Shown here: positions 17,369 to 17,614 of the stretch, piece after piece
Layout: the number at the start of each line of letters is the position of its first letter
Numbering within the stretch: position 1 is the first letter of the stretch
Assembly (NCBI GenBank): GCA_902800945.1
Contig: CADCFX010000007.1
Location: 1,376 to 65,375 of the forward strand
Origin: an uncultured Erysipelotrichaceae bacterium
Lineage (GTDB): Bacteria; Bacillota_I; Bacilli_A; RF39; UBA660
Length of the DNA: 64,000 bases
Direction: 5' to 3'
Translations under genes and position numbers: made by a program
The notes under the pieces: generated by a model
What the model was told of the DNA's origin: nothing
The model's database searches: none
The model's input: only the letters and a program-made list of their open reading frames with translations

Positions 17369-17614
17369 ATGGAAAATGTAGTTTCGTCAACGATGGGAGC
17401 TGTAGGTATTATCTTGGGATATGCTATGGCTGGATTCGGAATAGGTATTGGCATTTTAGGTTCAAAGATTGCAGAAGCTGTAGGAAGAAATCCTGAAGTT
17501 AAAAACGAAATAGTTAGTTCAATGATGATGTTATTAATAGTGGCTTCAATATTTGTTCTATTAGTCTTTGCTTTTTGTTTTATGCTACTATTCTTTAATC
17601 CTTTTATTTCGTAG
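17369..17614 (+). CDS. F-type ATPase subunit c-like proteolipid lacking the TM2 carboxylate
   Basis: Hairpin of two TM helices. TM1 is Gly-rich ([22 protein letters not shown]), the polar loop is GRNPE (canonical ARQPE), and TM2 is [22 protein letters not shown]. The residue 20 positions after the loop Arg, which is Asp/Glu in canonical c subunits, is Ser (codon 17546-17548). ATG 17369 is preferred over GTG 17363. Confidence 0.75.

Follow-up and report, generated by a model that had tools for sequence, protein, structure and literature searches.

To our knowledge, every ring subunit described for a rotary ATPase keeps at least one ion-binding carboxylate, and we know of no described c-subunit family that does without it altogether. 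The clearest precedent for an F-type hairpin without a carboxylate in a working ring is c1 of Acetobacterium woodii (4BEM), a duplicated subunit of four helices with one Glu left, which occurs as a single copy among the normal c2/c3 subunits and whose carboxylate-less hairpin lowers the ion/ATP ratio. We describe here the gene for an 81-amino-acid (aa) c-subunit homolog, hereafter called c81, and the gene cluster around it, on contig CADCFX010000007.1 from an uncultured Erysipelotrichaceae bacterium (GenBank assembly GCA_902800945.1); "the window" designates the whole stretch of 64,000 nucleotides that was analyzed. Compared with A. woodii c1, c81 is a single hairpin, has no carboxylate at all and is encoded by the only c gene of its cluster.

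The closest systems at the level of the whole cluster are found in mycoplasmas, where extra, divergent F1-derived alpha, beta and gamma subunits make up the Type 2 ATPase (the G1-ATPase of Mycoplasma mobile gliding) and the Type 3 ATPase (MIB-MIP antibody cleavage) (PMC3369863, PMC12994834). Their seven-gene clusters comprise a protein 1 with 12 transmembrane (TM) helices, a cytosolic protein 2 and a large protein 5; these operons hold lineage-specific membrane proteins, are tied to surface proteins, and encode neither a recognizable delta nor any homolog of a, b or c (PMC3369863, PMC12994834). Both types are thought to hydrolyze ATP and to pass force across the membrane without ion pumping (PMC3369863, PMC12994834). 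In the literature on F1-like ATPases, the G1-ATPase, the RFN20/RF39 ATP synthase and carboxylate-less c subunits, we found no account of the cluster described here, and only the work on mycoplasma Types 2 and 3 came close to it.

Like Types 2 and 3, the c81 cluster joins an F1-like ATPase to surface proteins, here through conserved gene neighborhood alone (~95 loci), and its alpha- and beta-like proteins also match the Type 2/3 NCBIfam models, at scores below their cutoffs. Unlike them, it retains a homolog of c, a b-delta-like stalk protein and the alpha N terminus, and it has neither a 12-TM protein nor a "protein 5". We consider it fairly probable that the cluster encodes an ATPase derived from the F type that does not move ions and passes mechanical force to surface proteins. 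A whole family of single-hairpin c subunits without the carboxylate, kept under strong selection in an operon that retains rotor and stalk genes and has lost subunit a, indicates an F-type machine repurposed beyond ion coupling.

A c-subunit homolog without the ion-binding carboxylate

The c81 open reading frame (ORF) runs from an ATG at position 17369 to a stop codon ending at 17614. The initial annotation of this gene, made from the sequence alone, had described a c-subunit hairpin with a Gly-rich TM1, a GRNPE loop and a hydrophobic TM2, and both the Pfam and the PDB alignments bear this out. The protein matches Pfam ATP-synt_C (PF00137) over model positions 2 to 60 of 60, with 39.7 bits (E 5.8e-10) for a gathering cutoff of 24 bits. 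A hydropathy scan gives two hydrophobic segments, at residues 9-27 and 55-73, and the second helix is hydrophobic throughout. In a phmmer search against all PDB sequences, c81 aligns ungapped across the loop and TM2 with A. woodii c1/c2 (4bem), Ilyobacter tartaricus c (1yce) and Fusobacterium nucleatum c (3zk1), the best match being A. woodii c1 with 55 bits. In these alignments the query IVAS falls on the target AVAE, and both proteins carry NPF at the C terminus.

The same annotation had placed a Ser (codon TCA at 17546-17548) 20 residues past the loop Arg, where canonical c subunits have their Asp or Glu. Counting from Arg40 indeed leads to Ser60, and MAFFT alignment with the c subunits of Escherichia coli, Bacillus PS3 and I. 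tartaricus sets S60 on D61, E56 and E65, respectively. At the level of sequence alignment, the register of Ser60 is confirmed by three independent routes, namely the Pfam profile, phmmer against the PDB and MAFFT. The replacement extends beyond this site: Q32, S66, T67 and Y70 of I. tartaricus, the other Na+ ligand positions, align with I, I, F and L of c81.

Altogether, c81 resembles canonical AtpE, and especially the Na+-type c subunits of I. tartaricus, F. nucleatum and A. woodii (c2), in its hairpin length, its GxGxGxG helix 1, its R-(Q/N)-P loop and its C-terminal NPF, and its gene immediately precedes the b-like gene of an operon arranged in atp order. It differs from AtpE by the S, A, T, V, F, M or I found at the carboxylate site in its family, by the hydrophobic residues at the Na+ ligand positions and by an operon without subunit a. 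It also misses the cutoffs of all NCBIfam c equivalogs, the best being NF005363 (40.8 bits for a cutoff of 71), with TIGR01260 at 29.3 for a cutoff of 43.95. Judged from these alignments, c81 is a true homolog of the ATP-synt_C family without the defining functional feature of AtpE, its carboxylate.

Public annotation of such proteins is divided. JGI/IMG labels carboxylate-less members (e.g., P0023, P0036, P0053 and P0119) "F-type H+-transporting ATPase subunit c", and NCBI labels them hypothetical. Metabolic reconstructions of abundant gut and rumen lineages may therefore wrongly credit their hosts with an ATP synthase or a proton pump from this cluster.

Conservation of the carboxylate-less site

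Relatives of c81 were pooled from genome loci, from two divergent contigs, from a profile search of 1.84 billion representatives and from 80 metagenome loci, giving 160 unique full-length c sequences. Position 60 is Ser in 81 of them, Ala in 55, Thr in 15, Val in 5, Phe in 2, Met in 1 and Ile in 1, and never Asp or Glu. The pattern was already visible in the first search, which returned 120 cluster representatives at 70-99% identity with Ser (72), Ala (47) or Thr (1) at this site and never an acidic residue; the two divergent clusters (L016 and L017) have Thr, and the 80 metagenome loci have A, T, V, S or M. Moreover, neither c81 nor any of the 160 family sequences has an Asp or Glu anywhere in positions 52-76 of TM2, so that the absence of acidic residues from TM2 noted earlier for this one protein extends to every ortholog and every distant relative in the set. 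The rest of the hairpin is strongly constrained. The Gly-rich helix 1 and the GRNPE loop are invariant or nearly so in the 160 sequences, with G13, G22, G39, N41, P42, N77 and P78 strictly invariant and R40 (159/160), G17, G28, G31, E36 and K45 nearly invariant.

These counts bear on one of the two options that the initial annotation had left for such a ring, a structural or rotor-anchoring role and a different coupling chemistry. In the second option, an ion would be carried via Ser or Thr at position 60, via Cys70 or via backbone groups, in line with the predominance of Ser, Ala or Thr at position 60 and with the presence of Cys70 in 124 of the 160 sequences. We regard this as very improbable, since 55 sequences have Ala and 9 others V, F, M or I at position 60, Cys70 is replaced by I, V, A or S in 34, the other Na+ ligand positions are all hydrophobic, and the cluster encodes no subunit a with access channels. 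The first option, a ring kept as a structural or rotor element, is the one that we favor.

The gene is under purifying selection. The median pairwise dN/dS (ratio of nonsynonymous to synonymous substitution) of the c gene is 0.11 among 14 orthologs, with synonymous differences near saturation (proportion of synonymous differences, pS, ~0.65), and the codon for residue 60 is TCA, TCT, GCT or ACT according to the species. An independently assembled metagenome contig (L069, JAEEGL017426043.1; 17.4 kb) carries a c gene 100% identical to that of the window, with the same Ser codon, and matches window positions ~11000-27600 with 99-100% protein identity over the cluster, the 164-aa multi-TM protein being only 96% identical. 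Because of this identical contig, of the 160 relatives without Asp or Glu and of the purifying selection, Ser60 is not a sequencing error. A decaying remnant, a pseudogene or an assembly artifact could have been expected from host lineages with reduced genomes (PMC10868615). We give such an origin practically no weight in view of the identity with L069, the dN/dS of 0.11, the 160 unique intact sequences, and a compact operon in which some genes overlap and the catalytic motifs are preserved; the artifact or pseudogene reading is refuted by the L069 identity, the purifying selection and the 160 intact relatives.

Among the weaker matches of the representative search were unrelated multi-hairpin c fusions of 230-430 aa with 3-5 hairpins (P0228, P0237, P0246, P0248, P0250 and P0252), in which Glu is kept in some hairpins and Q, S, A or G stands at the site in others. 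These are cases of partial carboxylate loss within fused rotor subunits.

An F1-like head in an atp-ordered cluster

The c81 gene belongs to an array of closely spaced genes, all on one strand, that extends from ~10405 to 34729 (Table 1). From c81 to the 89-aa ORF, the gene order is that of canonical atp operons (atpE-F-H-A-G-D-C), except that no atpB stands ahead and that one b-delta-like gene takes the place of both b and delta. The slot where atpB would stand is held by the gene of a 506-aa protein with no match in Pfam or NCBIfam, which adjoins the c gene in nearly all loci.

Table 1. Features of the c81 cluster in the window
Feature	Position	Strand	Description
Giant surface protein 1, 1796 aa as listed ORF	10405..15795	+	One N-terminal TM/signal-anchor helix
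506-aa protein	15795..17315	+	One N-terminal TM helix, large extracytoplasmic part; in the canonical atpB (subunit a) slot
c-subunit homolog without ion-binding carboxylate (c81)	17369..17614	+	81 aa; Pfam PF00137 match
Ser60 codon TCA	17546..17548	+	Aligns with the ion-binding Glu/Asp site in canonical c subunits
252-aa b-delta fusion-like putative stalk protein	17618..18376	+	AlphaFold2 model and Foldseek; N-terminal TM helix
F1 alpha-like protein, 468 aa	18472..19878	+	Pfam ATP-synt_ab, 234.8 bits; short acidic disordered C-terminal tail
F1 gamma-like protein, 270 aa	19881..20693	+	Pfam ATP-synt, 88 bits (cutoff 39.9)
F1 beta-like catalytic protein, 452 aa	20696..22054	+	Pfam ATP-synt_ab, 229.9 bits
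89-aa conserved ORF	22038..22307	+	In atpC (epsilon) position; overlaps the end of the beta gene
164-aa membrane protein, ~5 TM helices	22310..22804	+	AlphaFold2 model and hydropathy scan; only in this cluster
257-aa protein	22804..23577	+	Basic cytoplasmic tail, one TM helix, ~215-aa extracytoplasmic domain
Giant surface protein 2, 3546 aa	23605..34245	+	TM helices at both ends
164-aa single-pass protein	34235..34729	+	N-terminal TM helix; overlaps the end of the giant protein 2 gene

The three head proteins have clear Pfam assignments to F1 families and score under the NCBIfam equivalog cutoffs for housekeeping subunits. The alpha-like protein, with Walker A GDKKTGKT and the Arg-finger context SVSRLG, reaches 395 bits against NCBIfam atpA (cutoff 484), and the gamma-like protein falls far under the cutoffs of the NCBIfam gamma models (53.7 versus 194). 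The beta-like protein, whose motifs include EELSDED, scores 459.8 against TIGR01039 atpD (cutoff 462.85), and its best PDB matches are canonical F1 betas with up to 378 bits, the beta of the M. mobile G1-ATPase reaching 328 bits. None of the 39 unique beta-like and 45 unique alpha-like sequences from the related loci has lost the core motifs (Walker A and B, catalytic GERxxEG and Arg finger), which indicates a catalytically competent head.

Scores against the mycoplasma models are lower relative to their cutoffs, both for Type 3 (MSC_0618_beta, 412 versus 570; MSC_0619_alpha, 298.6 versus 520) and for Type 2 (MMOB1660, 367 versus 600; MMOB1670, 385 versus 850). As the match to MMOB1670 covers only positions 248-682, the beta-like protein has no ~250-aa N-terminal extension as found in Type 2.

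The composition of the cluster also bears on the place of c81 in a ring. Since its best PDB match, A. woodii c1, has one hairpin with Gln for the ion-binding Glu, c81 might be a minor subunit among carboxylate-bearing c subunits, working with a subunit a encoded elsewhere and lowering the ion/ATP ratio. Such a mixed ring seems to us improbable, given that the cluster supplies a full alpha, beta, gamma and stalk set of its own and just one c gene, that one c-like ORF is found per locus in all loci and always without the carboxylate, that the conserved partners are surface proteins and not bioenergetic genes, and that alpha, gamma and beta all stay under the housekeeping equivalog cutoffs.

The 89-aa ORF has no Pfam match (11 members searched), its profile has no match in the PDB, and hhalign against the E. 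coli and PS3 epsilon subunits gives a probability of just 0.15%.

The alpha-like protein carries a C-terminal extension that canonical alpha does not have. In the window (19780-19878) it is a low-complexity, probably disordered tail of ~25-30 aa; elsewhere it reaches ~240 aa (L002:11118-13241 and L011:7367-9397) and ~950 aa in a 1416-aa ORF (L010:3660-7910). The tails are rich in E/N/S/T/P or in PV repeats.

A candidate peripheral stalk

The 252-aa protein encoded between c81 and alpha belongs to a family of 64 members with no Pfam domain, and a sequence search with it gave chloroplast subunit b as the sole signal, at a nonsignificant E of 0.15. Its AlphaFold2 model, built with 29 family members, has a mean pLDDT (predicted local distance difference test) of 81.9 and shows a helix over residues 2-79 (a TM part and a long cytoplasmic part), a disordered linker, a helical bundle over residues 101-205 and a small beta domain. 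In a Foldseek search of this model against the PDB, ~30 of the top 33 matches were delta/OSCP chains of F-ATP synthases, with match probabilities of up to 0.99. These came from chloroplast, yeast, bovine, E. coli, Bacillus PS3, Acinetobacter and Pseudomonas enzymes and from the mycobacterial b-delta fusion; E values were between 1.8e-3 and ~0.2 for most of them and none reached 0.001.

The model is consistent, though not conclusively, with a peripheral stalk protein of the b-delta fusion type. As in the mycobacterial b-delta fusion, a membrane-anchored b-type helix would be joined to a delta/OSCP-like domain; unlike it, the protein is 252 rather than ~440 aa long, has no detectable sequence similarity to that fusion and matches it only marginally in structure. 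Further support comes from the alpha-like protein, which aligns to atpA models from residue 3, its alignment to the alpha models of Types 2 and 3 starting only at residue 27. The canonical alpha N-terminal segment binds delta, and Type 3 alpha is without that segment (PMC12994834). The alpha-like protein keeps this delta-binding segment, which therefore supports the stalk reading of the 252-aa protein.

Absence of subunit a from the cluster

Neither the ORFs of the cluster in the window nor those of related loci with Pfam annotation gave a match to ATP-synt_A, the subunit a family. The multi-TM protein of 164 aa has an AlphaFold2 model with five to six long helices (pLDDT 76.7) and belongs to a family of just 18 homologs with no Pfam domain. 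Its profile has no match among PDB sequences, the best match of its model in a fold search has an E of 1.7, and 17 members of the family gave no match to ATP-synt_A even at E 10. A disguised subunit a was considered on account of a MILRLVNNY stretch similar to the a-subunit LRLFGNMY, and was rejected as its Arg is not conserved among the orthologs. The 164-aa protein may rather serve the ring as its stator or as another membrane partner.

All relatives, among them the 169-aa P0121, have 5 residues near the C terminus of this protein that the window copy is missing (ITVS-----MKSYK), which points to a small indel, or to a difference in assembly, around 22760-22780.

Surface proteins and the proposed mechanism

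On both sides of the ATPase genes lie genes for large surface proteins and their smaller partners. Giant protein 1 has a hydrophobic segment at residues 31-49, with homologs aligning from about residue 20; its sole Pfam match is a weak fn3, and it has no match among PDB sequences or in NCBIfam. Its gene is conserved two genes upstream of c, with the 506-aa gene between, wherever the flank allows. Giant protein 2 carries weak Pfam signatures of GLUG-type Gly-rich repeats and of a ConA-like lectin domain (Laminin_G_3), again with no match among PDB sequences or in NCBIfam, and is encoded downstream in most loci. The 257-aa protein, likewise conserved in the loci, matches no family in Pfam or NCBIfam, nor does the 164-aa single-pass protein, whose gene may be the last of the array. 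As fn3, GLUG and Laminin_G_3 are the only Pfam signatures found and all are weak, identification of the giant proteins and their small partners as known adhesins or gliding proteins is unsupported.

In F-ATPases, the residues at and after the R-N-P loop contact gamma and epsilon. The c homolog keeps this loop and the residues that follow it, the Gly-rich packing motif of helix 1 and the C-terminal NPF. From c-ring chemistry, a ring with no carboxylate, and with no subunit a to provide the Arg and the half-channels, carries neither H+ nor Na+. The earlier view that such a ring cannot perform canonical ion translocation is thereby supported, and it is reinforced by the lack of a detectable subunit a in the cluster.

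We propose a model in which c81 would be the ring-forming proteolipid of a rotary ATPase of F-type descent that no longer moves ions. The alpha3beta3 head and the b-delta stalk would act as the stator, and gamma with the c-ring as the rotor. Since the carboxylate, the subunit a Arg and the half-channels are all lacking in the cluster, the complex would only hydrolyze ATP, being able neither to use nor to build an ion gradient. As both the rotor (gamma and the c loop) and the stalk are kept, torque between ring and stator is suggested to be still the working principle. Torque or cyclic strain on this ion-blind ring would then pass in or across the membrane and reach the surface proteins via the 5-TM and single-pass proteins, with adhesion, movement, remodeling or release as the possible output. 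By analogy, the mechanism may be likened to the models for the Type 2 gliding and Type 3 MIB-MIP ATPases.

The constant proximity of very large membrane-anchored or secreted proteins, whose genes adjoin the cluster in every case, would also fit a static anchor or export ATPase, in which the c oligomer tethers the F1-like head or forms a pore-like collar and the ATPase exports or assembles the giant proteins without productive rotation. The alpha- and beta-like proteins are also related to FliI/SctN, the export ATPases of flagella and type III secretion systems, and a translocation role is among the hypotheses put forward for the Type 2/3 ATPases (PMC3369863). Nevertheless, gamma, the b-delta-like stalk and the invariant gamma/epsilon-docking loop of c amount to rotor-stator hardware, the ordinary N-terminal hydrophobic anchors of the surface proteins fit Sec export, and alpha and beta score far nearer to F1 than to FliI/SctN. 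We thus see a static anchor or export role as unlikely, although it is the alternative to which we give the most credit.

Several points weigh against our preferred reading of a force-passing ATPase that moves no ions. Ring assembly, rotation, the lack of ion transport and the coupling to surface proteins are all steps that we infer. The delta-like assignment of the 252-aa model depends on Foldseek E values of 1.8e-3 or more, which makes it marginal, and for the 89-aa ORF, which holds the epsilon position only, an epsilon identity could not be shown from its sequence. A canonical atp operon elsewhere in the genome may supply subunit a or normal c subunits. Finally, the link to giant protein 2 is not universal, this protein being absent from a rearranged human-gut lineage described below.

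A more specific and rather tentative proposal is that the cluster encodes an ATP-driven motor whose ion-blind c-ring is the mechanical output, turned by F1 against the b-delta stalk and a new 5-TM stator to move giant surface proteins or cycle their conformation (for adhesion, gliding-like motility or surface remodeling), and that it is a surviving intermediate between F1Fo and the F1-like X0 motors of mycoplasmas, in which loss of the ion path (subunit a and the c carboxylate) came first and replacement of the c-ring and stalk later. To judge from its composition, the cluster is either an intermediate stage of the mycoplasma repurposing or a parallel to it that arose independently. It would matter as a tractable intermediate for studying the origin of mycoplasma F1-like X0 ATPases from ATP synthase and the transfer of torque to surface proteins.

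Distribution and hosts

We count ~95 loci with this neighborhood in metagenomes of gut, rumen and other origin, with up to 10 kb covered on each side. The neighborhood is found in 14 species-representative metagenome-assembled genomes labeled uncultured Tenericutes, Erysipelotrichaceae, Bacilli, Mycoplasma sp. or Candidatus Coprovivens, and marked in several cases as rumen, goat cecum or Hadza human gut samples, and in two divergent contigs whose stalk protein is just 27-28% identical. The 80 metagenome loci examined were taken from 420 matching stretches, many from human gut, and the longer ones show the full cluster. One exact variant of the c sequence occurs in 724 blocks of the assembly collection.

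In an abundant human-gut lineage (L018-L039), the order is rearranged, with gamma downstream, no homolog of the 3546-aa protein and a c subunit with Ala at the site. One such locus (L028:2734-16244) reads giant1-p443-c-b/delta-alpha-beta-87aa-168aa(TM)-241aa-104aa-gamma. Giant protein 1 and the 506-aa protein, both encoded upstream, are more constant partners of the ATPase genes than giant protein 2.

The uncultured Bacilli orders RFN20 and RF39 have been described as relatives of the Mycoplasmatales with both walled and wall-less members (PMC10868615). The hosts of the cluster use the standard genetic code, with long ORFs under table 11. On a Hadza gut contig, a gene for the spore coat protein CotE lies just upstream of the cluster (L098:2295-2834). 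This gene speaks against all hosts being wall-less, and some are probably spore formers rather than wall-less, mollicute-like cells.

Beyond the cluster, the window carries tandem, overlapping serpin genes (47710-48891 and 48884-50179; Pfam Serpin, 260 and 224 bits), which seem unusual in a bacterium and may be relevant to a host-associated lifestyle. The GC content of the window is very low (24-33%), and nearly all large ORFs between 3320 and 55408 are on the plus strand. The GC skew is strongly positive (0.2-0.5) almost throughout and comes near zero only at the window start and at ~56000-60000, where genes lie on the minus strand.

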